Positions 1 to 64,000 of a stretch of 64,000 nucleotides of DNA are shown here, piece after piece. Source of the stretch: Candidatus Heimdallarchaeum aukensis (GTDB taxonomy: Archaea > Asgardarchaeota > Heimdallarchaeia > Heimdallarchaeales > Heimdallarchaeaceae). Numbering within the stretch: the first letter of the stretch is position 1; the number at the start of each line of letters is the position of its first letter. Made by a program: the position numbers and the translations under genes. The stretch covers positions 2,048,001 to 2,112,000 of the forward strand of contig CP084166.1 of the NCBI GenBank assembly GCA_021513695.1. Reading direction: 5' to 3'. Under the pieces are notes generated by a model, which was given only the letters and a program-made list of their open reading frames with translations, had not been told where the DNA came from and did not search any database.

Positions 1-1
1 T

Positions 2-3000
2 TTAGTAGGTGTAGGAGAGAGTACAGAGCAGTATATTGCTACAATCAGCAGAGAAGAAAAAACGATTACTTATTCCGCTATTCTAAGTTCAGCAGAGGAG
101 CAAGAACAGTGGAAATATTTCTATATTAGCCTTTATCAGCTTGCGAGACATATTCCTAAAGAATTACTTGTAGATAATTATTCAAATGGAAATAAAGAGG
201 TTGATCTATTAGATGAAAATTACCCTGTTTCTGGTATAATTTCTGATGCAAAAATGGTCGTTAATTATGAAGGTTCATATGTGGAAAAAATCATCCAATT
301 AGAAAAAGGAGCAAATCAAAATCTATACATTTCTGACTTGAAATCTACAATTACTAACATCCATAGCGCATATCCTTACGAAAATGCTTTATCTTCTTTG
401 CCTGAGGAAATAAAATGGAAAAAATATGATGTTCCATTTGATGGGTATATTCCTCTTGATAATGTCTATCTTGATGATTTTGACGGTAGTTCGTATTATA
501 TCTACGATGTAGTGGTTTATGTTGATGCTTCCACTTATTCTAAAGTACATTTAACAGTTGAAACTGAGGGATCTTTTGTTCTTTCTAACCGCTACTCTAT
601 AATATTACAAAAGATGGGTTTTTCAAACGAAGTTGTTTCTACAGTCTTTAGCGCACAACAAGGATATACTCCCTTGTATCTTCACGTTGTTTTTCCAAAA
701 ACAGCTTTTAATCAGAATATACGCATTCAATACATCTCCAATGGAGGAGTGGCTATAAGTGCTGAAAACAATAGAGAAGGAGATGCCATATCAGAGTGGT
801 TGATCTCTACTCCTTTCTATTCGGAAAAAAATGAGGACACCGTTGATTATCTTAATTTTATTTCACAAGTTACACCTATGGAAGGAGAGCGATTCGAAAA
901 AAGAGTAGTAGATTCAGAAGGATTTACCCACACAGAAACAATAGAATTTTCTGAATTCACTTTTCCTGGATTTTGTCCTATCTTAGACTTTGTTCCTCAT
1001 GCTGTTCCTTCAGGTTATTCTGTTATTCTCACTACTACGCTCGATTTCGCCAAAAGTTTGAACACTTCCTTAGTTCTACTTCTAAACAAAGAAAGTGGCA
1101 TAACAATACAATCCTTACTTTGGGATGAGACTCCACTTCTTTACATCAATGAAGGAGTATTTAACGAAATTGACTCCGATTTGGAAAATGGTATGATTAC
1201 TATACCTTTGAATAGTGAAGGGTTAACTGTCAACAGTCTCTTTTCTCCTAAAGAAAACAACCCTAATGAGTATGGTTTCATAGAAAACGACCCTGATTAT
1301 AACTTTCATTTTTCATCTTCTGACCCTTATAGTATAAAAACATCCTCTGTTAACCCTGATTCTGTTATTTTGAACAACAAAGGCATTCACAGAATAGTTA
1401 TCCAATTAACCTTTCCTTCTCCTTATAATACAGATTTTGGAATATATTTGGAAAATGTAGATGATAGCGTGCGAACTGTTTTATCTCCCTCAGATAAAGC
1501 AATAGACTTTCATGCAATCGCACAGAAGAACTTTATTCAATTTGAAAACGATCTTCATCAACCTCAAACTCTTGCTCAATTAGAGAAAAACGAGAATACT
1601 TTATTTAAATCACGATATTTCAAAGATGACTATGGTCAATACCATTCCTATAGAATTTATAGTCTTGGCTTTTCTGATGAATACACCTTAGATAAAGGAA
1701 AGAAATGGAAAATATATGATGGTGATACTGATGATTCTAACGATGTTATCTATGAAAGTACAGCTCACTACAATTGGAAACATGTAATAGGAAAGATGAA
1801 TTTTGCAATTGTTATAGATGAAGGAACTCCACAAGTTTTGCAATTGCCTTTTAATTTTCTAGTAGGTTACATGGTCTTTTGTGATTGGCTAGATACAAAT
1901 GGAGATGGATTAGAAGATACATGTGCTCCTTATATAGGTCTAGCAGACCCCTTAGATGCTAGTTCTACTTACGATGATGTAAAAAAAGGTGTAGTGTATA
2001 ATACAGAGGAAGAGAAGAAAATAAGTTATGATGTTACTGATGAACAACAAGCAGAACTCAAGAATCTTACTGTACGCCAATCGTTGATATCTTCTCTTTC
2101 AACTACAGTAATTACAAAAACAGAAGAAACCATCCCCTTATCCTACACTTCTGACGAAATAGCTGCTATTCAAAACAATGGATTAACTCTTGATCGTTAT
2201 CTTCATTCTTTAATAGAAAATGACTATTTGACCTACTCTGAAGATATTGCAAGAGTAGAAATAACTATTAGTTCTTCAAATAATAAAGAAATTGACCTTG
2301 CTTATGATTATGATAAAGAAATATTGTTCACCCACAGTGTTGATAATGCTACAGGAGAAGAAGAAAAAATAGTCTATGATTTTAGATATGACTGTTTTTC
2401 TGTCCTCACTCCTGATGCTCTTGCTAACGACAACTACAGAGTAGATTTTTATACTTTTAATAATAAACTAAGTCTCTATGATACCGATTTGTATAAACTT
2501 AAAGAAACGCCTAATTCTTACGGATTGTTAGATGATCCACAAACTCTTTCACCTATGGTAGTCTTAGAAAATTATAACTATGAAATAAAAGAAACAGTTA
2601 ATAGTCTTGATTCAAAAGATGAAGAAATTTTAAACAATAGTCCAACAACAATTGTAGACGCTTTTGTTCAAGGATTAAGTCTTTCTCAACTAAGCGTGGA
2701 AATGTATGATGCTGAAATAGAGATGGATTATTACAGTTTAGATCTCTTCTATTCTGTTTTCTTTAATGAATATTTGACTCTACAACAATTCTTCTATTCT
2801 CAAGAAACATTAAATAACAACCAGAATTATCAGTATTATCCTACTGGGACAATCCAATTTGCTAAATGGATTAGTTCAATACTTAACTCCTATATAATCC
2901 AACAATCAGACAAATTATTTGATGAATACCAAAACCGTACTTCTCGATATGATTCAGAGAAAAAAGCTATAGCTGCTATGTCCTTTTTGTTAGACCTTAT

Positions 3001-6000
3001 TATTCCTTATCGCGGATTCAAAACCTACGGTTCGGAACCTAAACCAGAAGAGACTCATCACCCACGTTTCTCTAGTTATGTGGACTTCAAATATAGTCTA
3101 GTTATGTTTTGGGGATTAATCTTAGGTAATAGTGCAGGCTGTGGAATACCTAAAAATTCTGTCTCTCTGTTTAGCGAGAGTGAGAGAACTGGAAAACTCT
3201 TGATGATTGACGAATTATGGGATAAAGCTATTAAACACTGGAACTTGGCAGATAAAAGTAGAATAGATGATCCTAGCGAATATTTGCCCTATACTGACCG
3301 AGCTGTAGTAGACAAAATACTGTTTGACGCCAGAGTAAGAGGAGATGAAGCTATGATCGACTGGATAACAAATGAAGATTATAGTGCTGAGGCTTATTAC
3401 ATGCAACCCTATGGAGTGGATTATTCGATCTATTACTGGTTGAAGGCTTTTACTATTCAACAAGGATATGACCCTTATGCTATCAAGGTTTACACCATTG
3501 AAGAGATGAATAGTCAAGAGAGAGAAGATTTTGACGAAAATTATTTTGTTATAGGCGTTCCTGTTTCCACAATCGAAGACCAATATTTAGAATATAACTG
3601 GTTTGTAAGTCTAGATAAAGAAACACGTGTGCCCACTTCTGCTACATCACAACTAATAGACTTTATCCCTCTTGTATTCGGTCAAAGTTCTAATCCACAT
3701 ATAAGAACAATGATGAAAATAATTAAAAGATTAGGAAATGCAGCAAAAGGAGAAAATTTCGGTTATAATACTTTTAGCATGAGTGAATTCAGCTTAATCG
3801 TTACTTTAGAATTTTTAGTTAATCTTGTAGATATAGGCGCTTTACTTATTGATATCAGAGATGCCTATATAGGAGCTACTCCTTTCATACGCAAAATGTC
3901 GCTCATGCAAATACCAATGGATATACTAGATTTGTTCACTCCAGGACCTTTTTCTCTCGTAGGAAATACAATGAATAAAATTTTCAAATCTATAGTCGGA
4001 GACGTTACCTTAGAAGTAAATAGGATAACAAAAACATTTAATTTACTAGATATTGTACAAAATTTCCCAAAAGGAGAGTGGAAAAGCATTGCTCGAGCAG
4101 CAGGAAAATCAGAACTAATGATCTGGATAGTTGGAGCAGCACAAGTGACTTACCGTTTCTCTAAACTAGCCAATCAATTCTATCAATGGTTCTTCTTCCT
4201 CCCGCAAAAGATTTTCATGAGTAGTTTACAAATAACTTTAGGGTCATTCATGATATTTGCCTCTAAAATGATTTATGCCATCAGAAGAATGGATATCGAA
4301 GAAGCAATGTTGTTAAACATTAAAGCGCAAAAATACTTCAACCAAGGACTAGATGATACCGCTAAAATGACAAGAGCTATATTAAGCCATCCAAAAATGC
4401 TAGCAAGATTTGGAACTGAAGAACTTATAGAACGAGCAAATATAGTAGCAAAATATTACATGAACATTATTATAAAGAAAGTAATGGAATTGGAAGCAAC
4501 ATCAAAAGCAATACTAGAATCGGTTGAAAAGTCACGCTTCTATGTTATGATGGCCTTAAGATATGCTACACATATGTACATGAACACCCCAGGAGGAGTA
4601 GGTATACACTTCTCTCCCAATTTAATTGATAATGAGAAAGAAACTGAAGGAATAAGACATTTCAACACCGTGGATAATATTTTGCCAAAATTAGAATATG
4701 AAATAGCAATGTATTACTGGAAGCATGAATATCTAGCGGATGATGAAAAAATAAAAGAGTATAATAGTGAAAAATTCAATTTCAGAGATGTAGAAAGCGC
4801 AAAAATACATATAACTATAGCTTTTTCATCTATTGCTGCAATACATTCGACACCAGAATCATTCCAAAGATATAAAGAACTACTAGAATACACAGATAAG
4901 AGGTTAATAGAAATAAAAAATGAAAAGGGTGAAAATCTAGAGTATACACCTATATGGTGGATTTTACATTTGCCTGTTGATCCCTCGCTACAAAAACTAG
5001 CCCTTAGCCACATATTTGATGAATCACCTGCAGTTTCACTGCTTCTAAAAGTTCTAATGGTAGAGAAAGGTCTTAACGAAGACTTATTAGAAAATAATAT
5101 CGACGATATAGATGAATACAATAAAGAAGTTCATTCCATTTTAGATCAAATTTTATCTTCTTCCCCCCTAAATATAAGTCATAAAGTCTTTATCCTTGAA
5201 AAAGATGAAAAAGGGAATCATATCTGGAAAGCAAGAATTTTAGATTTGTTAGGGCAATCTGAAGGATCATTAACTAAGTTAAGGACACGAGATGAATATA
5301 TTAAGTGGTCTGTAATCGGTAGAACAGGAATAGACTTGTTAGGCCTTTTCGGAAGTGAAGAATTAAAAAACTATTTTCCCAAAGGAGTAAGAAATGCTTT
5401 AACTGCTAGAAATGATCAAACTTCAATAATCTATGAGCTTATATGTATGGGATTATTAGATTTTAGATTTTATACAGATGATAAAAATGTAAAGGATCAA
5501 TTAAAAATTGATTTTCCAGAGCATGACTTTGAAAAAGAACCCAGTATTAGCATTGCTGAATTAGCTAAAAAATATAGTAAATATGATATTCTAGAATTAT
5601 TTGAAAAAAGTAATTTTATTAGACAGACTCTTATAAGTAATGGAGTAGACGGATTAATACACAGTACAAAAATAGGAAAGTCTCTTTATTCTGTTAAAGA
5701 TTCAACGGGAATATTCAATAAAGCTAATTCAAAAAATATTTTATACTCTGTAGCAGCTGAAAATGCATATATAGGTCATGGAAGTGTTATTTATTATTAT
5801 GATAAGCTACAAGGTGATATTATCACGGATATAGATAATAAATTGATATACAATGCTAGATATTATGATCCTACAGCTTCAAAATCACCTAAACCTTTTG
5901 TTCCAGGCGATGCAATATTACTCTATGATTCCAATGTAAATCGTTATCTGTTTTTAAGAACTAATTTTCCTGAGGACACTATGCTAAATCAAAATCAGAA

Positions 6001-8641
6001 ACTAGATGAATATAGTGGTTTTAAAAGAGAAATTAACGTGTTTTGGTTTCAAATAAACAAAGATACAAATGAGGGAGAGATAGTTTATGATACATTAGAA
6101 CACTATTGTTATGAAAATGAAAAACTGAAGGAAGGAATAAAAGTTGTTGGAACGGAGGATATTTTGCAAGAGGTAGATAAGTTTCATCCAAAGAGAAATA
6201 AAATAAGAAGTAGTCAACCTATAATATCAATAGAAGCAAAGCAAAATGGAGGGAACATAGATTACGTTGTCTCAATGGATGAACAACTTCCTTTATTTAG
6301 GTTTATAGGTGGAGATTATTCAACTGCAACAGAAAAAGACATCAATTTTGCTAGTTTTCTTTACCCAAGAAAACATTCCAACGATATTGTTTTCGGATTG
6401 CAAGATGATAACTTAGATTTTATCGATGAAAAGGGTTTATGGCCTATCCATATGGGTTTAAGCCCAGGAAGGTTTACATACAACGTGCAAAACATATATT
6501 TAGATGAGATTAATTCAGCAAAAGCGTTATTGGATAAATTAGATGAATTAGATAACTTGCCTGTAGTAGAAGTTAAAACAAAGGATAATGAATATATAAC
6601 TCGACCAGCAACAGTTCAGGAAGTAAATCAACAGAGAGTATATGAGTTAATTAGATGGTACTCTACAAGTCAAGTGTATACTTATTATGTGTCTAGTTTA
6701 AATAAAGAAAATAAAGCATTTTTGTGCAGAGCATATCTAGATGATTGGAATGCAGCTAAATCGTTAGGTGAAATCATAGAAATAGCAGAAGATACTAATG
6801 GAAATCTATACCAGAAATATGGTTATGAGAATAAACAAGAATATCTAACCTTTAGAATGAATGTTATTCAAACAATAATAAACGAACAAGAACAGTTCTA
6901 TAAATACAAGTTTAAAGATGAAAGTGATTTAACAAAAGAAGAAAAGTTGGTAATATTTCTAAAAGAACAAAAAGAATTTTTTGAAAGATTACATAATGAC
7001 GCTGCTAAAATAGAGGCATTTCAAGAACCATTTTTTTCAAACTTGAGACTAGACATTAAAGAAGTCGATACATATAATGTACTTAATTATCGCAGTTTAG
7101 AATCGTCAATTGAATTACTTTTATTAAATAGATTTGACTCGTATAATAAGATACACTTATTCGAAGGAGATGTACCTTTTTCAAGAAACCCGATGAAATT
7201 CGGTTTCGATAATGTAATTGTCCAAATAGGTACGAGAGCATTCATAAACAAGGTCAAAGAAGAGGGAATATTAGATTTTGATGAAGATAAAAATTCAGTA
7301 TTAGAACTAGCTAATAAAGTATTTAAAAGAAAAACAGTTATAAAACCATTAATCCGCGGACCAATAAAAGCAAAATCAATTGCTTTTCTCCAACATGAAG
7401 AAACAATGGCTAAACTGAACAATTATAAAACATTGCAAAAAATATCCAAAGAAGAAATAAGGCTCTGGAAACTTTACAACAAAAAATTAGATAATGAAAA
7501 AGGCCATTTGACTGTAGAGCAACTATACGAAATAGAAGAAGAGTTCAACAATATAAATGGAAAAAATATAGTAGGAAAACAAGGAGCAGGGATGACAGTA
7601 ATAGAAGATGGAAACACATATGTTGTAAAAATATACAGTCTCATCAGTGATTTAAGATATAATAACAAAATTCATGCAGGTAGTGAGGCAAATAAGTATG
7701 ATATTGCAGAAAGAGTGTTGGGACTAGCACAACACATAAAGTACGTAGCAAAGGAAGGAAGAATATACATTAATTATGCAATGGCAAACATTCTTTATCT
7801 GATAAAAACACTAACAAACGGTAAAATGGAAATAGATGACGTCCAGAATCTAAGGGACCTGGGAAATCCAAAGGAATTAGAAGCTATACTAGTAAATAAT
7901 TTAGGGGAAGAAAGAACAAAAGAAATACTAAATATTTTAGAAGAAGTAACCATAAGAACGAAAAGAAAAATAAAACAAGGAAAAGATTATTCCATAGAAA
8001 ATATAGAAAAAGGACAATCGTTGGCTTTTCAAATTGGATATGTGGATCTGAAAAATATAACCCCTGAGGTAAGAGGAAAATTAAGGCTACAAGGGATGTT
8101 ATTGAGAGAAATCTTGATGTTACTGGATATAATATATGGACTATATTATACAGGAAGAAATTATATGAAACGCCTAGATATTAATTTAGCGCAAACAACA
8201 GTAATTTTCGAAAAAACAACGGAAGAAGGCAAAACAATACTAAAATTAAAAGACGTAAAAACAAGCACAGAACAAGAAATGAATGGAGAGTTCATATCAT
8301 CACTGAACGATTTCGACCAAAAAACAGCATCAATAATAGAAAAACTGGCTGAAACTAAATATTCATCAGTATTTGGACCAGAATTTATGACTAGAGAACA
8401 ATTAAGAAAATTGGTAGATGAAATAATAGAAGAATATGAGAGTATACTAAAATTGAAAATAAGAAAATTCAATGAAATATTAACTCAAGACGATATGGAA
8501 GTAGAACTAGTAGCAAAGAAATTCAAAATAGAAGAATTGCTAAAAATGCTAACACCTAAAGGATTATGGTCAATGTACGAGCAAAAGAAAAGAAATAATG
8601 AAAAAAGAGGACAAACAAAAATAACAGACTTCCTAATTTAA
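2..8641 (+). CDS. Giant hypothetical protein, 5'-partial: frame is open from base 2 to the window edge, so over 2879 aa. Probable surface/membrane-associated protein.
   Basis: Single uninterrupted ORF. I translated bases 2-253 by hand and found no stop, so the gene starts upstream of the window. No catalytic motif recognised. There is a D-x-D-x-N-G-D-G-x-x-D calcium-binding-like motif (DWLDTNGDGLEDT) and a hydrophobic stretch mid-protein (around nt 3800-4300). Cys-poor, Asn/Asp/Tyr-rich. Confidence 0.7.
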   Translation, partial: LVGVGESTEQYIATISREEKTITYSAILSSAEEQEQWKYFYISLYQLARHIPKELLVDNYSNGNKEVDLLDENYPVSGIISDAKMVVNYEGSYVEKIIQLEKGANQNLYISDLKSTITNIHSAYPYENALSSLPEEIKWKKYDVPFDGYIPLDNVYLDDFDGSSYYIYDVVVYVDASTYSKVHLTVETEGSFVLSNRYSIILQKMGFSNEVVSTVFSAQQGYTPLYLHVVFPKTAFNQNIRIQYISNGGVAISAENNREGDAISEWLISTPFYSEKNEDTVDYLNFISQVTPMEGERFEKRVVDSEGFTHTETIEFSEFTFPGFCPILDFVPHAVPSGYSVILTTTLDFAKSLNTSLVLLLNKESGITIQSLLWDETPLLYINEGVFNEIDSDLENGMITIPLNSEGLTVNSLFSPKENNPNEYGFIENDPDYNFHFSSSDPYSIKTSSVNPDSVILNNKGIHRIVIQLTFPSPYNTDFGIYLENVDDSVRTVLSPSDKAIDFHAIAQKNFIQFENDLHQPQTLAQLEKNENTLFKSRYFKDDYGQYHSYRIYSLGFSDEYTLDKGKKWKIYDGDTDDSNDVIYESTAHYNWKHVIGKMNFAIVIDEGTPQVLQLPFNFLVGYMVFCDWLDTNGDGLEDTCAPYIGLADPLDASSTYDDVKKGVVYNTEEEKKISYDVTDEQQAELKNLTVRQSLISSLSTTVITKTEETIPLSYTSDEIAAIQNNGLTLDRYLHSLIENDYLTYSEDIARVEITISSSNNKEIDLAYDYDKEILFTHSVDNATGEEEKIVYDFRYDCFSVLTPDALANDNYRVDFYTFNNKLSLYDTDLYKLKETPNSYGLLDDPQTLSPMVVLENYNYEIKETVNSLDSKDEEILNNSPTTIVDAFVQGLSLSQLSVEMYDAEIEMDYYSLDLFYSVFFNEYLTLQQFFYSQETLNNNQNYQYYPTGTIQFAKWISSILNSYIIQQSDKLFDEYQNRTSRYDSEKKAIAAMSFLLDLIIPYRGFKTYGSEPKPEETHHPRFSSYVDFKYSLVMFWGLILGNSAGCGIPKNSVSLFSESERTGKLLMIDELWDKAIKHWNLADKSRIDDPSEYLPYTDRAVVDKILFDARVRGDEAMIDWITNEDYSAEAYYMQPYGVDYSIYYWLKAFTIQQGYDPYAIKVYTIEEMNSQEREDFDENYFVIGVPVSTIEDQYLEYNWFVSLDKETRVPTSATSQLIDFIPLVFGQSSNPHIRTMMKIIKRLGNAAKGENFGYNTFSMSEFSLIVTLEFLVNLVDIGALLIDIRDAYIGATPFIRKMSLMQIPMDILDLFTPGPFSLVGNTMNKIFKSIVGDVTLEVNRITKTFNLLDIVQNFPKGEWKSIARAAGKSELMIWIVGAAQVTYRFSKLANQFYQWFFFLPQKIFMSSLQITLGSFMIFASKMIYAIRRMDIEEAMLLNIKAQKYFNQGLDDTAKMTRAILSHPKMLARFGTEELIERANIVAKYYMNIIIKKVMELEATSKAILESVEKSRFYVMMALRYATHMYMNTPGGVGIHFSPNLIDNEKETEGIRHFNTVDNILPKLEYEIAMYYWKHEYLADDEKIKEYNSEKFNFRDVESAKIHITIAFSSIAAIHSTPESFQRYKELLEYTDKRLIEIKNEKGENLEYTPIWWILHLPVDPSLQKLALSHIFDESPAVSLLLKVLMVEKGLNEDLLENNIDDIDEYNKEVHSILDQILSSSPLNISHKVFILEKDEKGNHIWKARILDLLGQSEGSLTKLRTRDEYIKWSVIGRTGIDLLGLFGSEELKNYFPKGVRNALTARNDQTSIIYELICMGLLDFRFYTDDKNVKDQLKIDFPEHDFEKEPSISIAELAKKYSKYDILELFEKSNFIRQTLISNGVDGLIHSTKIGKSLYSVKDSTGIFNKANSKNILYSVAAENAYIGHGSVIYYYDKLQGDIITDIDNKLIYNARYYDPTASKSPKPFVPGDAILLYDSNVNRYLFLRTNFPEDTMLNQNQKLDEYSGFKREINVFWFQINKDTNEGEIVYDTLEHYCYENEKLKEGIKVVGTEDILQEVDKFHPKRNKIRSSQPIISIEAKQNGGNIDYVVSMDEQLPLFRFIGGDYSTATEKDINFASFLYPRKHSNDIVFGLQDDNLDFIDEKGLWPIHMGLSPGRFTYNVQNIYLDEINSAKALLDKLDELDNLPVVEVKTKDNEYITRPATVQEVNQQRVYELIRWYSTSQVYTYYVSSLNKENKAFLCRAYLDDWNAAKSLGEIIEIAEDTNGNLYQKYGYENKQEYLTFRMNVIQTIINEQEQFYKYKFKDESDLTKEEKLVIFLKEQKEFFERLHNDAAKIEAFQEPFFSNLRLDIKEVDTYNVLNYRSLESSIELLLLNRFDSYNKIHLFEGDVPFSRNPMKFGFDNVIVQIGTRAFINKVKEEGILDFDEDKNSVLELANKVFKRKTVIKPLIRGPIKAKSIAFLQHEETMAKLNNYKTLQKISKEEIRLWKLYNKKLDNEKGHLTVEQLYEIEEEFNNINGKNIVGKQGAGMTVIEDGNTYVVKIYSLISDLRYNNKIHAGSEANKYDIAERVLGLAQHIKYVAKEGRIYINYAMANILYLIKTLTNGKMEIDDVQNLRDLGNPKELEAILVNNLGEERTKEILNILEEVTIRTKRKIKQGKDYSIENIEKGQSLAFQIGYVDLKNITPEVRGKLRLQGMLLREILMLLDIIYGLYYTGRNYMKRLDINLAQTTVIFEKTTEEGKTILKLKDVKTSTEQEMNGEFISSLNDFDQKTASIIEKLAETKYSSVFGPEFMTREQLRKLVDEIIEEYESILKLKIRKFNEILTQDDMEVELVAKKFKIEELLKMLTPKGLWSMYEQKKRNNEKRGQTKITDFLI

Positions 8642-8664
8642 AAATAGTAAATAAAGAAAAAAAC

Positions 8665-8768
8665 TGGTGCGTCAACCGGGAATTGAACCCGGGCCGTCGA
8701 ATCTCTTCTTGAGGCTTCTAGACGCCATATAATGGAAGTCCGACGTACTACCACTATACTATTGACGC
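8665..8768 (-). tRNA. tRNA, probably Gly(TCC), with about 30-nt intron at canonical 37/38 position and encoded CCA
   Basis: Reverse complement folds as acceptor GCGTCAA/TTGACGC, T-arm CCGGG-TTCAATT-CCCGG, anticodon stem TCGGA/TTCGA (two G-U pairs) with loop CTTCCA|intron|A, then discriminator A and CCA. Anticodon assignment is tentative. Confidence 0.6.
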
Positions 8769-8970: not shown

Positions 8971-8976
8971 GAGGAG
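8971..8976 (+). promoter_or_regulatory. Shine-Dalgarno-like GAGGAG 8 nt upstream of rpl11 ATG
   Basis: ttagaggagaatatatt ATG. Confidence 0.5.
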
Positions 8977-54965: not shown

Positions 54966-55564
54966 AATATTATTAAGGTCTACTGCTTTTTTTTTTCCTC
55001 TGTTTAAATATTTTTTGTTGAGTTATTTTTCTTCAACTGTATCTCATTTAAGTAAGTTTGATTATTAAAATTATTAATGAGTTCTTAGGCTGTTTTTAGA
55101 AAAAATAATTACTAAAGTTTTTTCTTATAGACTCTGACTTCTAGGGAAAAAATACTATCCTGTCATTTGTTATTCTTATAACCTTGCTTTTACATCAAAA
55201 AAGTTCAAACTTCAAAAATGGAATAAAAAAGTGAATAGTTTGGATTTTATACTACACATTTTCTTTGTGTAAGGTATATTGAAGTTTGAGTTAATTCTTC
55301 ACGTCTTGTTCTTTTTTGTACTGGTCTTGATTTCCAGTATTTTTCTGTTCTTCCTGTTTTTCTTTCTGCCATTTTTATCACTGTATACATAATGTCCCCT
55401 TATTTATTAAGCACTTTTAAAATCAACAGTTGTAACGCTTCTAATTGTTGGTTTTATCCTCTTTTCTTTTAATTAAGCTTCAAAAGAGAATCATTTATCT
55501 GATAAACCAAAAGGTTAAAGAGGAAATATAGAAGTGAACCACTTTTTATTACTTTTAGTGGCCA

Positions 55565-56437: not shown

Positions 56438-56671
56438 CGAGTTGTTTACCCTATTATCTTATTTAAACAGCAAAAAAGTTCTTTCTTGATTTTCTTACTC
56501 TCTGCTTCTTTTTCTTCTTTTTGTACTTTTTTTAATTATCATTTTCTTTTGTTTAGTTTTTTGTCTGAACTTATCATCTAATTTCTTTAGAAAAAACTTA
56601 TAAAAATATCAACAATTGGTGAGTTAAAGAAAAGAATATTATTCTTTAAGATAAAATTAAATTAGTCAGAG

Positions 56672-58393
56672 TTGATCGACTTGAAAGCAATTGCAATCGG
56701 ATTGAAAGTATTAGGTTTTATCTTAATATTTACCACGGCCTTTGTGCCTATCTACAAGATTTATTATGATGCTACTCCACTGAGTGAGCATGACAAGTAT
56801 ACACAAGATTCACTTTTAATTAGTATATTTGGTTCGAGAGTTGAATATAATACTATAGGATATGATTACAATAACAATATCACGAAGGTGTATACGGAGT
56901 TACAAATTCCTAGTAATATAGTCCTACTGTCTGCAGCGCTATGGTTTTTGTTATTCTTTAGTGTTCTCGCTGCTGCTTTAGGTCAAGTATTTCAGTCAGG
57001 AGGAGTGAAAAAGAGAGGTAATATGGCAGACATAATGGCTGCATTATTCCTGTTAGTCTCTTTGATTGTTCTCATAATTGCTATTAATCGGACTTTGAAC
57101 TTCACTGCGAGTGAATACAAAGCGGTATTGTCTGGACAGACTGCTACTCCTTCATCTGCAGTAACTTTCAATCCCAATGATAGTAATCCTTCTTATTTCT
57201 TAATTAGCTTACGTGGAAAAATGACCTTCATGTTTTATATTTATATTATTGGTGTTCTTCTCACTCTAACAGGTTTATTCTTACCTGTTGATTGGACAAA
57301 ACCAAGTGAGGGAACATTCAGTAAAAAATTCGCTAGTTCTAAACCCATTTCCTTTATTAAACAAATAGCTACAATGAGGTTGACCATCTATATTCTTCGC
57401 CGACTTCTTACACTCATCCCCTTGTTCATTGCCATTATGGTTATGACCTTTGTAATGGTTTCTGGGTTGGGAGACCCTGTCGCATTGTTACTCTTGGGTA
57501 AGATTAACGTTACCGAGGAAGACAAAATTAACCTTACTAGATCTCTTGGATTGGATCAACCTGTTTATGCTCGATTTGTTATTTGGTTCTATAACTTCCT
57601 TCATGGTAATATGGGTGAAAGTTATCGTGGTGGTCGTTCTATTAACACCATGATTGGTGAACTTGTTTGGGAAACACTAAAACTTCAGCTTGCTTCTTTT
57701 GTTTTAGCTTTACTCATAGCTATTCCTCTAGGTGTGGTCGCAGCTAAGAATCAGAATACTTGGATTGATTCAACTGCAAGCACTATCGCTCTTCTTGGTT
57801 TGTCCATGCCTATTTTCGTTTTTGGTTTAATGCTTATTTATATCTTCAGTGGATATGGTTTAGGCTGGCTACCAGCAGCTAAAGCACATTCCATTCCAAC
57901 TCCTGTTGTTGATTGGTCCGCACTCCGGGCAGGAGACTGGGGTACGTGGTGGTCCTCGCTGATGGCGCGTACGGGAGATTCAATAATTCACATGATCCTT
58001 CCAACTACTGCTTTGACCTTCGCTTCTCTTGCTACCTATACTCGTTTAGTCAGAACAACAATGTTAGAAGTTCTTCGCCAAGATTATATTTTAGCAGCTC
58101 GAGCTAATGGTCTTTCTGAACGAGTTATTACTTGGAAACATGCTTGGAGAAACGTTCTTATTCCTGTAGTTACTTATGTTGGTCTATTTTTAGCTTCGGC
58201 TTTAGCTGGTGCTCCTATTACAGAAACGCTTTTCACTTGGCCTGGTTTAGGTTATAGGTATGTTGTTGCTGTGGGTCTTTTGGATTTTCCGATGATTTTG
58301 GGTACAACTGCTATTCTTACTATTTTGATCCTTTTAGGAAATTTAGTTACTGATATTGTTTACGTCGCTGTTGACCCGAGAATTGAATTGTAG
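56672..58393 (+). CDS. ABC transporter permease, OppB/DppB family, with about 230-aa N-terminal membrane extension (alternative internal start at 57374)
   Basis: C-terminal 340 aa is a canonical OppB (RLTIYILRRLLTLIP ... EAA-loop region YILAARANGLSERVI). N-terminal part has 5 extra hydrophobic segments. Confidence 0.8.
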   Translation: MIDLKAIAIGLKVLGFILIFTTAFVPIYKIYYDATPLSEHDKYTQDSLLISIFGSRVEYNTIGYDYNNNITKVYTELQIPSNIVLLSAALWFLLFFSVLAAALGQVFQSGGVKKRGNMADIMAALFLLVSLIVLIIAINRTLNFTASEYKAVLSGQTATPSSAVTFNPNDSNPSYFLISLRGKMTFMFYIYIIGVLLTLTGLFLPVDWTKPSEGTFSKKFASSKPISFIKQIATMRLTIYILRRLLTLIPLFIAIMVMTFVMVSGLGDPVALLLLGKINVTEEDKINLTRSLGLDQPVYARFVIWFYNFLHGNMGESYRGGRSINTMIGELVWETLKLQLASFVLALLIAIPLGVVAAKNQNTWIDSTASTIALLGLSMPIFVFGLMLIYIFSGYGLGWLPAAKAHSIPTPVVDWSALRAGDWGTWWSSLMARTGDSIIHMILPTTALTFASLATYTRLVRTTMLEVLRQDYILAARANGLSERVITWKHAWRNVLIPVVTYVGLFLASALAGAPITETLFTWPGLGYRYVVAVGLLDFPMILGTTAILTILILLGNLVTDIVYVAVDPRIEL

Positions 58394-58403
58394 GTGAAAA
58401 AAA

Positions 58404-59636
58404 ATGTTACGAGTGGCTCGTGAAAAAAGAAAAACAGTGTTTGAAAATAACGTTAAAGCTTATATGGAAGAGCATCGCCTTCCTCCATCAATGTCTTGGG
58501 TAGCAAAATTAGCTATTGCTTGGAGACATTATAGTGTTGATATAGCTGTACAGAGTTTGGCTATCTTTACTTTTCTCCTTATCTTTTTATCAATAACCTG
58601 GGATACTAGTTTTGCCCGGATTCTCATATGGTCTCTAATTGTTGCAGGAGTCTGGGGTGTAGTTAGATTTTCTATTCGTCTCTATAAACAAACTGCTATG
58701 CAAAAAGAACTTATTATTGCCAAAGATGGAACGTTAAGAGAACGTAGTCCTTCTAATTGGAGTCTTATCTGGAGACGATATAAGAAAAACAAGGTTTCTC
58801 TTTTGTCTGGAAGTGTGGTCGCAATCGTTACCTTAATTGCTATAATTTATCCTATTCTTTTACCCTTTAACCCTGTACAACAAGTTCCTCTATTTGATGC
58901 TTGGAATGGCGGTGGTTCAATCGCCCGACCTAATTTGAAGTATCCTGCTGGTACAGATATTCTCGGTAGAGATGAATTCTCAAGAGTACTTGCTGGTTCT
59001 GAGGTTTCTTTAACTGTTGGAGTATTTTCAACTGTCTTATCAGTTTTTATTGGTGTGTCCTTAGGAGCTATCGCTGGATATTATCGAGGTTGGTCAGAAG
59101 AAATTATTATGAGAATCACAGATATGTTCCTATCCCTACCTTTCTTAGTTATTGCTATTCTTGCTGTAGCCTTTATTAGGAGAGGAAGGATAGCTTTCTT
59201 GAAACAAATTCCTCAGTCTATGGTTATTATTCTTGTACTGGGAATATTTGGTTGGGGTGGACTGTGCAGGTTAGTAACTGCAAATACAAAGCAGATCTAT
59301 AGGTTAGATTATGTTAATGCTGCACGAGTATTAGGGGCCAGTAATCGTCGAATAATTCTATTGCATATTTTACCTAATATTTTAGCTCCTATAATTGTTA
59401 TAGCAACATTGTCTGTTGCAGGAGGAATATTGTCAGAAGCAGGATTGACTTTCCTAGGTTTGGGTAGTCCAACAACTATTTCGTGGGGACAAATGGTAAA
59501 TGAAGCCCAAACAGTTTTCAGATCCAATCCTGAACTCGCATTCATACCTGGTTTTGCAATATTTTTTGTTGTATTAGCTTTTAACTTACTAGGTGATGCC
59601 CTGAGGGACGCAATGGATCCAAGACTAAAGGAGTAA
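58404..59636 (+). CDS. ABC transporter permease, OppC/DppC family, with N-terminal extension
   Basis: PAGTDILGRDEFSRV N-terminal OppC motif, conserved permease core; about 110 extra N-terminal residues with 2 TM segments. Confidence 0.85.
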   Translation: MLRVAREKRKTVFENNVKAYMEEHRLPPSMSWVAKLAIAWRHYSVDIAVQSLAIFTFLLIFLSITWDTSFARILIWSLIVAGVWGVVRFSIRLYKQTAMQKELIIAKDGTLRERSPSNWSLIWRRYKKNKVSLLSGSVVAIVTLIAIIYPILLPFNPVQQVPLFDAWNGGGSIARPNLKYPAGTDILGRDEFSRVLAGSEVSLTVGVFSTVLSVFIGVSLGAIAGYYRGWSEEIIMRITDMFLSLPFLVIAILAVAFIRRGRIAFLKQIPQSMVIILVLGIFGWGGLCRLVTANTKQIYRLDYVNAARVLGASNRRIILLHILPNILAPIIVIATLSVAGGILSEAGLTFLGLGSPTTISWGQMVNEAQTVFRSNPELAFIPGFAIFFVVLAFNLLGDALRDAMDPRLKE

Positions 59637-60694
59637 TGAGAATAATGAAGAAAATAGAACCTATACTAGATGTGAAAAATCTTTACACCCGCTTTTATAC
59701 AGAAAGTGGTGTAGTAGAAGCACTTGATGGTGTTAACTTTGATGTAGGTTACGGAGAACCTGTTGGAATTGTAGGTGAAAGCGGGTGCGGAAAAACTGTA
59801 ACAAGTCATAGTGTGCTAAGAATTTTACCTAAAAATGGACGAATACTACAACCTCCAAGTGAAATATACTATAAAGGAGTTAATCTCTTAGACTTAACAG
59901 ATGAACAGATGCGACATGTTAGAGGAAAAGAAGCTGCAATGATATTTCAAGATCCGATGACTAGTCTTAATCCCATTTTCAAAATAAGTGACCAGATGAT
60001 TGAAGTTATCCAGTTACACAGAAAGGTAAACAAAAATGAAGCAAGGGATATAGCTATTGAGATGATGGAAGCAGTAGGTATCCCTGATTCCGCGGAAAGA
60101 ATTGACAATTATCCTCATCAATTCAGTGGAGGAATGAGACAAAGAATTCTAATTGCTAGAGCATTGGCATTACAACCAAGTTTGTTAATTGCTGATGAGC
60201 CTACTACAGCATTAGATGTAACCATTCAAGCTCAAGTTCTTGAAATAATCAAAGAAATGCAAAAGCAATTTGGTTTAGCTCTGATGCTAATCACTCATAA
60301 TCTAGGTGTGGTAGCTGAAATAACAAAAAGAGTACATATATTCTACGGTGGAAGAGTAGTGGAATCAGGTCCAACAGAGGAAATATTCGTTAATCCTTTC
60401 CACCCATATACAAAAGCACTTTTTGATAGTATCCCCTCACTAGAACAAGATAAAACAAGATTAGCAACAATACCTGGAACAGTACCTCAACTTATTAACC
60501 CACCGCAAGGTTGTAGATTTCATCCAAGATGTAAATATGCAACAGAAATATGTCGAAGGGCTCGTCCTCCAGATATGTGGGTAACAGAAACAAGACGTGT
60601 ACAGTGTCACCACTGGGAAGAATTAGATCTTACAATCGATAAAGAAAAAGTGAAAGAAGTGAGAAAAACAGCTGTTTCCGTGGAAGGTGTGTAA
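59636..60694 (+). CDS. ABC transporter ATP-binding protein, OppD/DppD-like
   Basis: Walker A GESGCGKT, signature FSGGMRQR, Walker B LLIADEPTTALD, C-terminal oligopeptide-transporter extension with Cys residues. Confidence 0.9.
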   Translation: MRIMKKIEPILDVKNLYTRFYTESGVVEALDGVNFDVGYGEPVGIVGESGCGKTVTSHSVLRILPKNGRILQPPSEIYYKGVNLLDLTDEQMRHVRGKEAAMIFQDPMTSLNPIFKISDQMIEVIQLHRKVNKNEARDIAIEMMEAVGIPDSAERIDNYPHQFSGGMRQRILIARALALQPSLLIADEPTTALDVTIQAQVLEIIKEMQKQFGLALMLITHNLGVVAEITKRVHIFYGGRVVESGPTEEIFVNPFHPYTKALFDSIPSLEQDKTRLATIPGTVPQLINPPQGCRFHPRCKYATEICRRARPPDMWVTETRRVQCHHWEELDLTIDKEKVKEVRKTAVSVEGV

Positions 60695-60696
60695 AA

Positions 60697-61749
60697 GTGG
60701 CAAGCATGAGATCATTTGAAGAATACGAAGTAATAGACACAGACTTGTTTTCAGCATGGGACCCAAATAAATTCCCTATTCTTGAAACAAAAAATTTGAA
60801 GAAATGGTTTCCAGTAGCTGAACAATCATTACTCTATTCAAAAACAGTAAACTTCATAAAAGCAGTAGATGGAGTAAATCTCTTTTTGAATAAAGGTGAA
60901 ACACTTGGACTAGTAGGAGAAAGTGGGTGTGGAAAGAGTACAACATCAAAAACAATAATTAAATTGGAAGAACCAACAGAAGGGTCTGTTTACTTTAAAG
61001 GAATAGATATGTTTCAACCAATGACAAGAGTTGAAGAGTTAGCAATAAAAAGACAGATACAAATGGTTTTCCAGGACCCATATGCAAGCCTAAACCCGAG
61101 AAGAATGGTTTTAGATATTATAAAAGAACCATTCGATATACATTTCGCTGATATGCCTTATGAAGAAAAAGAAGCAAGAGTACTGGAAATTCTAAGTAAA
61201 GTTGGTCTTGAAGATTATCATGCATTAAGATATCCACATGAATTCTCAGGAGGCCAAAGACAAAGAATAGGAATAGCAAGAGCTTTAGCTATGAATCCAG
61301 AAGTCATTCTGTTAGACGAACCAGTATCTGCATTAGATGTATCAGTTCAAGCTCAAATACTAAATCTATTACATGACTTGCAAATAGATTTCAAATTAAC
61401 ATATATGTTTATAGCACACGATCTAAGTGTAATTAAGCATGTATCAGATAGAGTAGCAGTGATGTATCTAGGAAAAATAATGGAAATGGCACCAACAGGA
61501 GAATTGTTCAGAAACACAGCTCATCCATATACAATAGCTTTATTGTCTGCTATACCGAGACCAGATCCAAGAATAAAAATGGATAGAATAATATTAGAAG
61601 GAGACCCACCAAGTCCAATTAATACTCCAAGCGGTTGTCCTTTTCATCCTCGTTGTTGGAAAGCTAAAGAAGTTTGTTCTCAAAAACAGCCTCCTTTGGA
61701 AGAAGTTAAACCTAATCATTATGTCAGTTGTTGGTTCCCTGAAATATAA
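60697..61749 (+). CDS. ABC transporter ATP-binding protein, OppF/DppF-like
   Basis: Walker A GESGCGKST, signature FSGGQRQR, Walker B ILLDEPVSALD. Confidence 0.9.
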   Translation: MASMRSFEEYEVIDTDLFSAWDPNKFPILETKNLKKWFPVAEQSLLYSKTVNFIKAVDGVNLFLNKGETLGLVGESGCGKSTTSKTIIKLEEPTEGSVYFKGIDMFQPMTRVEELAIKRQIQMVFQDPYASLNPRRMVLDIIKEPFDIHFADMPYEEKEARVLEILSKVGLEDYHALRYPHEFSGGQRQRIGIARALAMNPEVILLDEPVSALDVSVQAQILNLLHDLQIDFKLTYMFIAHDLSVIKHVSDRVAVMYLGKIMEMAPTGELFRNTAHPYTIALLSAIPRPDPRIKMDRIILEGDPPSPINTPSGCPFHPRCWKAKEVCSQKQPPLEEVKPNHYVSCWFPEI

Positions 61750-61867
61750 AACTGCAGAGAAATTAATCATTTTTTCTTTTTTTAATTTTAAAATTCATTC
61801 TTTTTTTTAAAAAATGATCTGATATTATTTTATACTACCGCTAAAAATAAAAATGATAAGTATCAAC

Positions 61868-61880
61868 TTATCATTGATAG
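61868..61880. promoter_or_regulatory. Palindrome TTATCA-T-TGATAG (core TATCATTGATA) 4-16 bp upstream of the GTPase start codon
   Basis: Same GATAG half-site as the arrays at 22968, 46280 and 47112. Confidence 0.4.
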
Positions 61881-61883
61881 ATT

Positions 61884-62822
61884 GTGAATGACAAAGTACT
61901 AAAGGTAGGAAAAGAATCAGTACCCGTAACTATACTTGGGTTAGAAAATGCTGGAAAAACCACTCTAATTGAGAGGTTAAAAACAGGTTCTTTTGTAGAA
62001 GATACAACTCCTACATTAGGTGTAAGCTTTGAATCTTTTAAAGTAGGTGATACTTTATTCAAGATTTTTGATGTTGGGGGACAATTTGTTTATCGAAAAC
62101 AGTTTTGGGTAAATTACGCATCAAATAGCTATGGTATTATCTTTGTATTTGATGCCTCCGATAAAGAAAGAACAACAGAAGGAAAAGAGTGGTTCTGGTA
62201 TCTAATAGACAATATTGAAATTGAAGACCGAATAGTTGTAGCTTTTTTTGCTAATAAAGCCGATTTAGAATGCATGTCAATAGAAGAAATTATTGAAGCG
62301 CTTGAACTCCCAAGGATGAGTGAGCACTCAAAGATTAGTTTCCAAATATTTAAGACAAGTAATAAAACAGGCGAAGGAATAGACGCTGCATTAGATTGGT
62401 TTACAAACAAACTAAAACAAATAGGAAAAGAAAAAATAGTCCATCCAAAAGGTTTGATTATAAGTACAACACTAGGCAGAGTGCAGTTATTCTTAGATCT
62501 TGAAGGATTATCACAACAAATATCGCAAATCAGAGAATTATTAGCTCAAATATTTAAATATGAATCAGCTACGCTCAAAGAAGAAAAATTATCTACTATT
62601 TCAAACGAGAATATAAAACTCGTATGTCACGAAAGAAGTGACGTGATAATAACAATGATCATAAATCCAGAAGAATCTCATGTAGAAGCTCAAAGATATA
62701 TTGAGCAAGTGTATGAATACTTAGAAAAGAAAACAGCAAAAACGAAAGATGAGCTTATAAAAGGAATATTAAACTTACTAAATATTAAAGATGAAAGTAA
62801 AGTTAAGATAATTACAATGTAA
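61884..62822 (+). CDS. Arf-family-like small GTPase fused to a C-terminal Roadblock/longin-like domain
   Basis: GTG start. G1 GLENAGKTTL, switch I TPTLG, G3 DVGGQ (Arf/Sar-type WDVGGQ-like), G4 NKAD, G5 TSNKTGEG. About 130-aa C-terminal extension with beta-beta-alpha-beta-beta-alpha periodicity (LIISTTLGRVQLFLDLEG ... IKLVCHERSDVIITMII). Confidence 0.75.
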   Translation: MNDKVLKVGKESVPVTILGLENAGKTTLIERLKTGSFVEDTTPTLGVSFESFKVGDTLFKIFDVGGQFVYRKQFWVNYASNSYGIIFVFDASDKERTTEGKEWFWYLIDNIEIEDRIVVAFFANKADLECMSIEEIIEALELPRMSEHSKISFQIFKTSNKTGEGIDAALDWFTNKLKQIGKEKIVHPKGLIISTTLGRVQLFLDLEGLSQQISQIRELLAQIFKYESATLKEEKLSTISNENIKLVCHERSDVIITMIINPEESHVEAQRYIEQVYEYLEKKTAKTKDELIKGILNLLNIKDESKVKIITM

Positions 62823-62910
62823 GAAACTTTTTTTCATTTTCAATTTTTTCTTTTTTATTAGACATCAAAATTATTCTATCTACCCTCACAGTAAATCTCT
62901 AAAAAATAAT

Positions 62911-62987
62911 TGGAGCCCCGGGGGGGACTTGAACCCCCGACCATTTGATTACAAGTCAAACGCTCTACCGAGCTAAGCCACCGAGGC
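62911..62987 (-). tRNA. tRNA-Thr(TGT), CCA encoded
   Basis: Acceptor GCCTCGG/CCGGGGC (one G-U), anticodon arm TTTGA-CTTGTAA-TCAAA, T-arm GGGGG-TTCAAGT-CCCCC, discriminator T. Confidence 0.8.
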
Positions 62988-63407: not shown

Positions 63408-63722
63408 ATGATGACTACAATCGCACAAGCCCAAGAAAAATTACTTGAACTCATTCATAGTAGAAATAGTATAAAGCAGACTGACACCGTTCGTATCCCC
63501 AAGCTTCCCAGTAGGATAATTGGTGAAAGAATGCTAGATGCTTTTGCCAATCAAATCCAAAATGATGTTGAAGGTTTAGAATCAGATCCATATATTGAAG
63601 ATGAATTAGTTGAAAGTTTATTAAGCACTTTAGCTTTAGCAGGGCTTGTTGGTATTGATCTTGAATCAAAATTGGAAGAGATTCTATCTTTAATGGAAAT
63701 TGTAACAGCTGATAGTTCTTAA
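63408..63722 (+). CDS. MazG-like nucleotide pyrophosphohydrolase domain protein (start uncertain; ORF opens at 63327)
   Basis: Helical EKLLELIHS ... ERMLDAFANQIQNDVEGL ... EDELVESLLSTLALAGLVGIDLE pattern resembles the MazG/NTP-PPase all-alpha fold. Confidence 0.4.
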   Translation: MMTTIAQAQEKLLELIHSRNSIKQTDTVRIPKLPSRIIGERMLDAFANQIQNDVEGLESDPYIEDELVESLLSTLALAGLVGIDLESKLEEILSLMEIVTADSS

Positions 63723-64000
63723 ATAACAGTTGCTTGTTTTACTCTTTATATGCCTCTTTTATCTAATTTGTGCTTTTTATTAATACTAGGTACTTTTTTA
63801 TATACCTTCATTTGTGATTCTTTTGAAATGGGGTATTTTGTAACCTTTTCTTACTGATATCTAATTATATTCAATAATTAAAAATATAAACAACCTAAAA
63901 AAATTAAAACTAGAGTATCTAAGAGTGATTTATTCGATGTCTAAATTCAGGAAAAAATGTAATCGCTATTATAAATTTGGCGCTCCTACTATGGCTAAGA

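Follow-up and report, generated by a model that had tools for sequence, protein, structure and literature searches.

The subject of this study is a 64,000-nucleotide stretch of the chromosome of Candidatus Heimdallarchaeum aukensis (contig CP084166.1, positions 2,048,001 to 2,112,000; hereafter, the window, with all coordinates counted from its first nucleotide), in which adjacent genes differ strongly in their preference for T-ending or A-ending synonymous codons. Very probably, this codon usage is the coding read-out of a purine/pyrimidine strand skew of the DNA that is anchored at tRNA genes. According to a rule in which we have similarly high confidence, a gene read toward a tRNA gene uses NNA and NNG codons, a gene read away from it uses NNT and NNC codons, and a long gene shows a gradient. 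The window contains seven tRNA genes, all seven are skew centres, and all seven switches of the skew sit at tRNA genes. With seven tRNA genes in 64 kb the window is unusually tRNA-dense; the sample from this lineage, comprising the window and the related Candidatus Heimdallarchaeum endolithica PR6, covers about 95 kb of a 3.3-Mb genome.

Codon bias, the strand sawtooth, and the tRNA genes

The bias was described by two measures: the index (A3-T3)/(A3+T3), calculated on fourfold-degenerate third positions only for each of 50 genes of the window, and the purine excess at fourfold sites (RY4), plotted along the plus strand in 1.5-kb sliding windows with the sign flipped for minus-strand genes. 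The index ranges from -0.85 to +0.87, A3 versus T3 usage differs between the 50 genes (chi2 = 804, 49 degrees of freedom), and the standard deviation of the index is 0.44, where binomial sampling alone would give 0.12. All eight fourfold codon families co-vary (r = 0.67-0.89), and therefore the differences reflect synonymous choice and not amino acid composition. C goes with T, and G goes with A, that is, the contrast is between pyrimidine-ending and purine-ending codons.

The original prediction had named a number of T-ending and A-ending genes, and these assignments hold. On the T side, the index equals -0.82 for rpl11, -0.85 for secE, -0.29 for spt5, -0.33 for the methyltransferase (MTase), -0.72 for the open reading frame (ORF) of an integrated element, and -0.85 for ribose-1,5-bisphosphate (R15P) isomerase, while RY4 is about -0.3 in the 5' third of a giant gene. 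On the A side, it equals +0.75, +0.87, and +0.85 for ORFs 16432, 17181, and 30470, respectively, +0.63 for Sm, +0.81 for rpl37e, and +0.36 for OppF; RY4 is about +0.64 at the 3' end of the giant gene, where the A-T component reaches +0.73. The ADP-forming acetyl-CoA synthetase (ACS, +0.15) and OppD (+0.13) do fall on the A side, as claimed, but their bias is weak.

The bimodality that had been ascribed to this usage was not observed. The index forms a continuum, best described by a one-component Gaussian mixture (Bayesian information criterion, 140.6 versus 144.0 for two and 151.1 for three components) and with Sarle's coefficient of 0.28; about half of the genes, e.g., all those between 37 and 48 kb, are near zero. 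The possibility, also raised at the outset, of a continuum explained by amino acid composition is thus correct as to the continuum and incorrect as to its explanation, the choice being synonymous. Furthermore, the bias drifts continuously within genes, from -0.35 to +0.64 in the giant gene, with gradients also in ACS and OppB, and therefore is not a property of genes as units. The two gene classes with pyrimidine-rich or purine-rich mRNAs, as originally envisaged, give way to a skew that acts on the DNA strand and depends on where a gene lies, and which way it points, with respect to the nearest tRNA gene.

These data also bear on the existence of two expression or translation classes, with NNT codons decoded by GNN anticodons in highly expressed genes and NNA codons in the others. 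Some T-rich genes are indeed highly expressed housekeeping genes (rpl11, secE, TyrRS), but rpl37e and Sm belong to the A-rich genes, with rpLX and prefoldin neutral, so that expression level is, as had been remarked, an awkward explanation. Given also the intragenic change, the unimodal distribution, the dependence of the bias on the DNA strand, its presence in intergenic DNA, and orthologues in a sister genome that are unskewed or have the opposite sign (see below), we regard such classes as most improbable. Similarly, the anticodon type of the tRNA genes (GNN versus UNN) does not account for the skew, as both types are found at its centres.

On the plus strand, RY4 has the form of a sawtooth, with slow rises and sharp drops at approximately 8.7, 18-20, 31.6, 35.0, 54.9, and 62.9 kb and a plateau near zero at 37-48 kb. 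The index, read on this strand, also agrees between neighbours of opposite orientation: the element ORF (plus strand, -0.70) and hypTM (minus strand, -0.76), Nep1 (minus strand, +0.74) beside MBL (plus strand, +0.85), SDR (minus strand, -0.71) beside OppB (plus strand, -0.40). The profile is unbroken across convergent and divergent gene pairs and within genes. The tRNA genes at the switches (J1 to J6) are as follows.

8665..8768, minus strand: tRNA-Gly(TCC) with a canonical intron; J1, RY4 +0.64 left, -0.65 right (Rfam, ARAGORN intron mode)
18201..18277, plus strand: tRNA-Pro(TGG); first half of J2, +0.81 left, about 0 up to tRNA-Leu (ARAGORN, Rfam)
20000..20084, plus strand: tRNA-Leu(TAG), the attachment site of the integrated element; second half of J2, -0.81 right (ARAGORN, Rfam)
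31608..31733, plus strand: tRNA-Met(CAT) with a 47-nt intron; J3, the strongest, +0.84 left, -0.80 right (Rfam, ARAGORN intron mode)
35025..35135, plus strand: tRNA-Ala(GGC) with a non-canonical T-loop intron of about 35 nt (35082-35116); J4, a minor switch
54888..54965, minus strand: tRNA-Val(GAC); J5, +0.54 left, -0.62 right (ARAGORN, Rfam)
62911..62987, minus strand: tRNA-Thr(TGT); J6, the weakest, +0.1 to +0.36 left, -0.35 to -0.37 right (ARAGORN, Rfam)

Between them lie the ramps.

1..8664: ramp 0, RY4 from -0.35 to +0.64, near-linear, inside the single 2795-aa ORF of the giant gene (254-8641)
8769..18200: ramp 1, from -0.65 to +0.81; rpl11, secE, spt5, MTase (plus strand), Roadblock (minus strand), ACS, PlsY, a hypothetical gene, and a Reprolysin-like gene (plus strand)
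20085..31607: ramp 2, from -0.81 to +0.84, unbroken over both gene orientations; element ORF (plus strand), hypTM, LipA, LipB (minus strand), rpLX, prefoldin, FtsY (plus strand), TyrRS (minus strand), AsnC (plus strand), Nep1 (minus strand), MBL (plus strand)
31734..35024: ramp 3, from -0.80 (R15P isomerase) to about +0.6 to +0.8 (Sm, rpl37e)
35136..54887: ramp 4, from -0.53, decaying to a plateau of about 0 (37-48 kb), then up to +0.54; the terminal rise spans Fdh/NuoG, NuoF, NuoE, and DTD, all on the minus strand
54966..62910: ramp 5, from -0.62 (SDR, minus strand) through OppB, OppC, OppD, and OppF to +0.36

The negative start of ramp 0 would point to a further, predicted centre upstream of the window; metagenome scans with the tRNA-Gly(GCC) exon and with the N-terminus of the giant protein gave no match. 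The ramps are roughly linear in the intervals of 8-12 kb, and the 20-kb interval shows exponential decay plus a plateau. On a JGI contig that runs 10 kb past the window end, the skew to the right of tRNA-Thr is -0.35 to -0.37 and then stays at about 0 for 8 kb of DNA with no tRNA gene.

Six of the tRNA genes were identified by Rfam, and every large drop fell on one of them, the minor drop at 34.3-35.3 kb having none annotated. The seventh, tRNA-Ala(GGC), was located because the skew profile predicted a centre there: a permissive Rfam search at this drop yielded a sub-threshold tRNA match (22.8 bits), the gene has the G3:U70 identity pair and an encoded CCA, its intron-removed form is called tRNA-Ala by ARAGORN, and an intron-less tRNA-Ala(GGC) is found at the same place after rpl37e in the sister genome GCA_054384195 (locus L044). 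ARAGORN at default settings detected four of the seven tRNA genes and missed the three that contain introns. Two of the window tRNAs carry introns that the sister lineage does not have; according to a hypothesis reportedly due to Randau and Soll, tRNA introns disrupt integration sites. The 3' CCA is encoded by all seven tRNA genes of the window (as CACCA or CTCCA at the end), and the same holds for the tRNAs seen in PR6 and in L044.

The geometry was quantified by a logistic model for 6905 fourfold sites, in which each tRNA gene at distance d adds -sign(d)*exp(-|d|/lambda). With a single shared amplitude of 1.95 and lambda = 2.25 kb, the likelihood-ratio (LR) chi2 is 943; a saturated model of 50 genes yields LR 1078, so that the tRNA model accounts for 87% of the signal between genes. 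When seven centres were placed at random, not one of 100 such sets exceeded LR 142. The correlation between the geometric predictor and the per-gene index is r = 0.88. The strand of the gene alone yields LR 49, versus 943-952 for the tRNA geometry, and thus the affected genes' own transcription was rejected as the cause.

On either side of each tRNA gene, whichever way that gene points, the strand directed at it is enriched in A (and G), and the complementary strand in T (and C). Within 1 kb, the fourfold sites of this inward-directed strand have A.70, G.11, C.05, and T.15; as the coding strand it has A.63 and T.20, and as the template strand, A.76 and T.10. Purines occupy about 81% of fourfold sites within 1 kb and about 85% (A+G) close to the strongest centres. 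Beyond 5 kb the composition is A.39 and T.43, and the skew is gone past approximately 5-6 kb. The orientation of the tRNA gene itself is nearly immaterial, with amplitudes of 2.10 upstream and 1.57 downstream and lambda of 2.18 and 2.10 kb, respectively. The amplitude varies between tRNA genes, from 3.4 for Met down to 1.0 for Thr, and the contributions are additive, as the skew is about zero between tRNA-Pro and tRNA-Leu, 1.7 kb apart. Heterogeneity of the GC content was ruled out as the cause, the fourfold GC being flat at 0.17-0.23 (0.17-0.20 except for one bin).

Every site class is shifted in proportion to its freedom: the amplitude equals 1.95 at fourfold sites, 0.57 in intergenic DNA (LR 193), 0.54 at other third positions, 0.53 at first, and 0.22 at second positions. 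The intergenic flanks of the tRNA genes match the predicted sign at about half the amplitude (+0.65 at 31517-31607, -0.44 at 8769-8984). The encoded proteins are affected as well, genes read toward tRNA genes being richer in K, E, N, G, and T, and those read away, in F, L, S, C, and P. Since all site classes, intergenic DNA, and amino acids shift, the force must act on the nucleotide composition of DNA or transcripts, and not on codon-anticodon matching.

Relatives and independent assemblies

The rpl11 protein is 97% identical to that encoded by the closed chromosome of Ca. H. endolithica PR6 (CP084167.1), with which positions 8819-18281 of the window are collinear at 96.6-97.9% DNA identity. 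The PR6 locus has the same sawtooth, with a fitted amplitude of 1.42 +/- 0.11 (1.87 for the window in the same comparison). Left of a pair of tRNA-Gly genes in PR6 there is an inward purine rise of +0.57 in DNA that has no homology to the window, and at the PR6 tRNA-Pro the inward rise is +0.80, its right flank lying between tRNAs. The jump statistics are +0.41 and +0.39 for the two PR6 tRNA-Gly genes and +0.17 to +0.75 for the window tRNAs; in the controls, which comprise forty tRNA genes from other archaeal and bacterial loci, they range from -0.20 to +0.18.

More distant genomes behave differently. The sister genome GCA_054384195 (about 80% protein identity; loci L036 and L044) has the same genes in a rearranged order, with an amplitude of 0.18 +/- 0.06; the amplitude is 0.07 in two Heimdallarchaeaceae of 72% identity and 0.00-0.14 in the other Heimdallarchaeaceae, Asgard archaea, Thermococci, and bacteria examined. 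The sister orthologues of strongly biased genes are nearly unskewed (rpl11, +0.18; secE, -0.19; Nep1 mRNA, -0.15; LipA, +0.07), and therefore the extreme codon usage seen in the window is not conserved among orthologues. The sister R15P isomerase is even purine-rich (+0.51 versus -0.85 in the window), being also adjacent to a tRNA-Met gene (L044, 10043-11230). L044 retains both the tRNA-Met|R15P isomerase and the rpl37e|tRNA-Ala(GGC) adjacencies. The positions of the tRNA genes are ancestral, and the skew is a recent gain in the lineage of the window and Ca. H. endolithica PR6.

Mosaic ancestry, one of the explanations originally offered, would attribute the contrasts to blocks acquired by horizontal gene transfer or from mobile elements with foreign codon usage. 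Two skewed flanks are indeed mobile or strain-specific, namely, the 2.83-kb element at tRNA-Leu and the giant gene, absent from PR6, and the sister OppDF block looks out of context. Still, most of the skewed genes are core genes, syntenic across Heimdallarchaeaceae, the fourfold GC is uniform, and the skew varies smoothly and antisymmetrically with distance, its gradients crossing the borders of genes and of the element (e.g., at 22.9 kb); hence we consider mosaic ancestry very unlikely.

The probability that the pattern is an artefact of assembly chimerism, wrong-strand ORF calls, or amino acid composition is practically negligible. It is true that the ORF at 12722-13207 (plus strand) is an antisense shadow, and that nothing but the CT-richness of the DNA keeps the N-terminal third of the element ORF open; but the third positions of a shadow ORF coincide with those of the true frame, which leaves the measurement unaffected, only fourfold sites were used, and eight codon families agree. 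Assembly chimerism, also named in the original prediction, is excluded by independent assemblies that are identical or collinear over the switch points: Logan contigs are 100% identical to the window over 24.8-35.1 kb and 53.3-64 kb, a JGI contig matches it at 99.7%, and the closed PR6 chromosome is collinear over 8.8-18.3 kb.

One JGI contig of the same species is without 85 nt (61570-61654) in the 3' part of oppF; this gap, not a multiple of three, is either a strain-level frameshifting deletion or an assembly difference.

Known strand asymmetries and candidate causes

Several known systems share features with the window. Replication produces strand asymmetry in the form of the Lobry-type GC and AT skews of bacterial and archaeal replichores. 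Like the skew of the window, these are a property of the DNA strand for which gene orientation is irrelevant, are strongest at fourfold sites, have sharp sign switches, and bias amino acids. However, the window switches seven times in 64 kb and not twice per replicon, its skew decays to zero in about 5 kb, it is anchored at tRNA genes and not at oriC/ORB or dif, it is of the purine type with A-T dominating, and its amplitude is several times larger. The mammalian skew N-domains, reportedly described by the groups of Arneodo and Thermes as a sawtooth with jumps at replication origins, similarly combine abrupt jumps of one polarity with gradual ramps of the other, but the scale in the window is about 10 kb versus about 1 Mb, the skew type is other, there is a zero plateau, and the jumps are at tRNA genes.

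Transcription-linked mutagenesis and skews, with raised mutation at and around tRNA genes, have reportedly been described by Thornlow et al. in PNAS in 2018 and by Green and Touchon. The likeness lies in tRNA genes as mutational foci and in an asymmetry tied to a directional process. The known effects have a reach of tens to hundreds of bases, are of the transition or keto type, and follow the orientation of the transcribed unit, whereas in the window the reach is kilobases, both sides are symmetric, the type is that of A<->T transversions, and the orientation of neighbouring genes is immaterial. In vertebrate mitochondrial DNA, the skew is said to grow with the time spent single-stranded (work attributed to Reyes, 1998, and to Faith and Pollock, 2003), which resembles the window in the continuous gradient of fourfold composition through genes and in the dose-response to strand-specific exposure; the differences are that the mitochondrial changes are transitions (C->T and A->G on the H strand) in one replicon, and those of the window involve A versus T at many centres.

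Two further comparisons concern mRNA. Purine loading of mRNAs, a notion ascribed to Forsdyke, and Szybalski's transcription-direction rule likewise oppose purine-rich and pyrimidine-rich coding strands, but half of the tRNA-proximal genes of the window are strongly pyrimidine-loaded, and the fourfold strand coefficient is -0.13, i.e., the sense strand is slightly pyrimidine-rich. Purine loading was rejected as a candidate, as genes read away from tRNA genes are pyrimidine-rich even at first and second positions (the first-position purine fraction of Nep1 is 0.42). Translational selection on codons, as reportedly described by Ikemura and by Sharp and Li, also creates large synonymous differences between genes, including those for ribosomal proteins, but the bias of the window is not specific to the sense strand, is not kept in orthologues, and is present in non-coding DNA.

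In the literature searched, no description of a kilobase-scale skew centred on tRNA genes was found, and the paper on this genome (PMC8813620) does not deal with skew, codon usage, or replication origins. As far as we could find, an antisymmetric tRNA-centred skew of this scale has not been previously described.

Among the explanations mentioned in the original prediction, local mutational regimes come closest to the data. Our favoured candidate for the cause, held tentatively, at slightly less than even confidence, is a lineage-specific strand-asymmetric mutation or repair bias seeded at tRNA genes; the length scale fits tracts of resection and resynthesis, or short-range outward synthesis or transcription. 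The tRNA-anchored strand skew and a mutational cause, taken together, we judge to be somewhat favoured on balance. A directional process would start at tRNA genes and run outward for a few kilobases on both sides. Recurrent nicks or breaks at tRNA genes might lead to 5'->3' resection, after which the outward-running strand would be resynthesised in an error-prone manner; alternatively, short-range outward DNA synthesis or transcription might expose this strand. Either way, the outward strand would on balance gain T and the inward strand A. The events could be supplied by the very high transcription of tRNA genes or by the integration of mobile elements, whose main target in this genus they are. 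Many elements integrated at tRNA genes are known in the genus Heimdallarchaeum (Wu et al., 2022; PMC8813620); the window itself has one at tRNA-Leu and a strain-specific giant gene that abuts tRNA-Gly.

Several observations weigh against a mutational skew anchored at tRNA genes. In logit units, intergenic DNA reaches only about 30% of the amplitude at fourfold sites, and thus substantial constraint on intergenic DNA would be needed. The fourfold GC near tRNA genes does not show the fall predicted by simple depurination plus the A-rule. In the sister genome, the Opp operon (L036, 1-5200, Ga0366833_1000906) has a strong sawtooth with no tRNA gene: RY4 goes from -0.34 to +0.72 over OppB-OppC, drops sharply at OppC|OppD (3050/3057), and equals -0.15/-0.46 in OppDF, unlike the simple monotonic ramp of the Opp operon in the window. 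In L044, the skew falls within the 300 nt that separate the R15P isomerase gene from RuBisCO, a stretch in which a search for RNA genes had no result. These non-tRNA jumps may be skew carried over after rearrangement, or there may be other anchors besides tRNA genes.

The divergence between the window and PR6, compared in one inter-tRNA domain with 58 fourfold differences and hence underpowered, points in the same direction. Fourfold divergence equals 3.2, 4.2, 3.8, 6.0, and 11.9% at 0-1, 1-2, 2-3, 3-4, and 4-5 kb from tRNA genes, respectively. A simple model of added mutation predicts about 1.8-fold more transversions near tRNA genes, and a selection model, about half as many; purine-pyrimidine transversions number 6/615 near versus 9/410 far (few counts), with the transversion:transition ratio unchanged (6/17 near versus 9/26 far). 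These underpowered data are too few to decide, yet they are not in favour of extra mutation. The low divergence near tRNA genes could also reflect recombination or homogenisation. Single-nucleotide polymorphisms within the species number only about 30, too small a set for this comparison.

Over 8819-18281, synonymous divergence from PR6 varies about fourfold, from approximately 3-4% near the flanking tRNA genes to approximately 12% around Roadblock and the 5' end of ACS.

Selection on the strand composition around tRNA genes is an alternative that we consider unlikely. For instance, U-rich, easily terminated outward transcripts might insulate neighbouring genes, the value of this fading with distance; archaeal RNA polymerase and aCPSF1/FttA terminate transcription on U-rich RNA. 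The fourfold amplitude 3.4 times the intergenic one is in favour of selection, as is synonymous divergence that is lowest where the skew is strongest, as if the sites were constrained. There is also a slight excess of A5+ runs in genes read toward tRNA genes, equivalent to T-runs on the outward strand (144 versus 129 +/- 5 under synonymous shuffling, a marginal excess). On the other hand, transitions, neutral with respect to purine/pyrimidine content, are reduced near tRNA genes as much as transversions, and the near-equal upstream and downstream amplitude and decay would not be expected for read-through versus divergent transcription. Genes read away from tRNA genes (rpl11, R15P isomerase) would be harmed by the same U-richness, yet T5+ runs in such genes are not clearly avoided (62 versus 68 +/- 5 under shuffling). 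Moreover, a selection coefficient near 1/Ne would be required at each of thousands of sites, and the pattern is missing from relatives whose tRNA genes occupy the same positions.

The sawtooth could also reflect replicon structure, with tRNA genes as regular replication initiation sites or two-sided fork barriers or termini and replicons of 10-20 kb, as a small-scale counterpart of the mammalian N-domains; this we find distinctly unlikely. Such a structure would be in line with the antisymmetric skew, the abrupt switches, the near-linear ramps between centres 8-12 kb apart, the irrelevance of tRNA orientation, and the cancelling between close tRNA genes (Pro and Leu in the window, the Gly pair in PR6), and purine-type replication skew (A>T with G>C) does occur in PolC-bearing Firmicutes. 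However, fork polarity should not decay over 2 kb, and the profile is flat at zero at 37-48 kb and for 8 kb beyond tRNA-Thr; the approximately 85% purine near the strongest centres is far above known replication skews. There is no conserved origin-like repeat in the tRNA flanks, where a motif search revealed no shared motif beyond composition, and no Orc1/Cdc6 among the annotated genes of the window.

Neighbouring loci and the significance of the skew

The gene set of the window, according to Pfam, is that of an Asgard archaeon and comprises an Arf-family GTPase, Roadblock/LC7, Sm, Spt5, rpl11, rpl37e, type III RuBisCO, R15P isomerase, LipA/LipB, ACS, a NuoEF/Fdh-like complex, and the Opp transporter. 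The integrated element at tRNA-Leu is as follows.

20054..22939, plus strand: integrated element of 2.83 kb, strongly pyrimidine-rich on the plus strand

The element is bordered by a 56-nt direct repeat of the 3' end of tRNA-Leu(TAG) (20054-20109 and 22884-22939, 88% identical) and carries a single long ORF of 930 aa (tRNA excluded), ending at 22881. The first approximately 370 codons of this ORF are S/F/L low-complexity, the DNA being near-pure CT with all three plus-strand frames open. No recognisable integrase was found in the element. Neither its ORF nor the giant ORF has a sequence match in Pfam, PHROG, or PDB.

The giant ORF (254-8641, 2795 aa) ends 24 nt before tRNA-Gly(TCC). Among 5.8 billion proteins it has one homologue, a partial protein (82% identity) of a metagenome-assembled genome of Hodarchaeales. 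At the corresponding place in PR6 it is absent save for the last approximately 108 nt, the PR6 homology starting at window position 8533. It resembles the tRNA-associated giant-gene 'aloposons' (Wu et al., 2022; PMC8813620), of which it is a candidate only.

In strongly skewed DNA, shadow ORFs and CT-rich pseudo-ORFs such as 8732-8929 are easily mis-called; thus, the real gene at the site of the plus-strand ORF 12722-13207 (161 aa) is the minus-strand Roadblock/LC7 gene at 12709-13146 (Pfam E = 6e-19), of which that ORF is the antisense shadow. At 31897-34276, the R15P isomerase gene (e2b2) adjoins type III RuBisCO, an adjacency present in all Heimdallarchaeaceae loci fetched and expected for the archaeal AMP/nucleoside salvage pathway. 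The 3' end of a MobA-like gene contains a perfect-register tandem duplication of 38 nt (48575-48650, 97% identical), and two intergenic sites that are unrelated to each other (22968-22998 and 46295-46325) carry short (TGATAG)n microsatellites. The window has no dispersed repeat that could serve as a probe for other loci.

The skew means that codon usage in this genome is no proxy for expression, gene age, or horizontal transfer, and that near tRNA genes, composition-based binning, gene calling, and codon-adaptation indices will be misled. It implies a strong directional process, mutational or selective, running from tRNA genes outward on both sides. As the skew arose recently, in a genus with two closed genomes and enrichment cultures, its cause is testable.

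Eukaryotic tRNA genes act as fork barriers, load condensin, and are targeted by retroelements. It is conceivable, if unlikely, that in this lineage DNA synthesis regularly begins, or replication forks regularly halt, at tRNA genes, and that the chromosome is split into many small replication or repair domains; initiation might be primed by R-loops or driven by mobile elements, or the tRNA genes might form two-sided fork barriers like those of eukaryotes. The sawtooth would then be the footprint of these events in the archaeal group closest to eukaryotes, and such a tRNA-gene-centred chromosomal process in Heimdallarchaeia would bear on the origin of the properties of eukaryotic tRNA genes.

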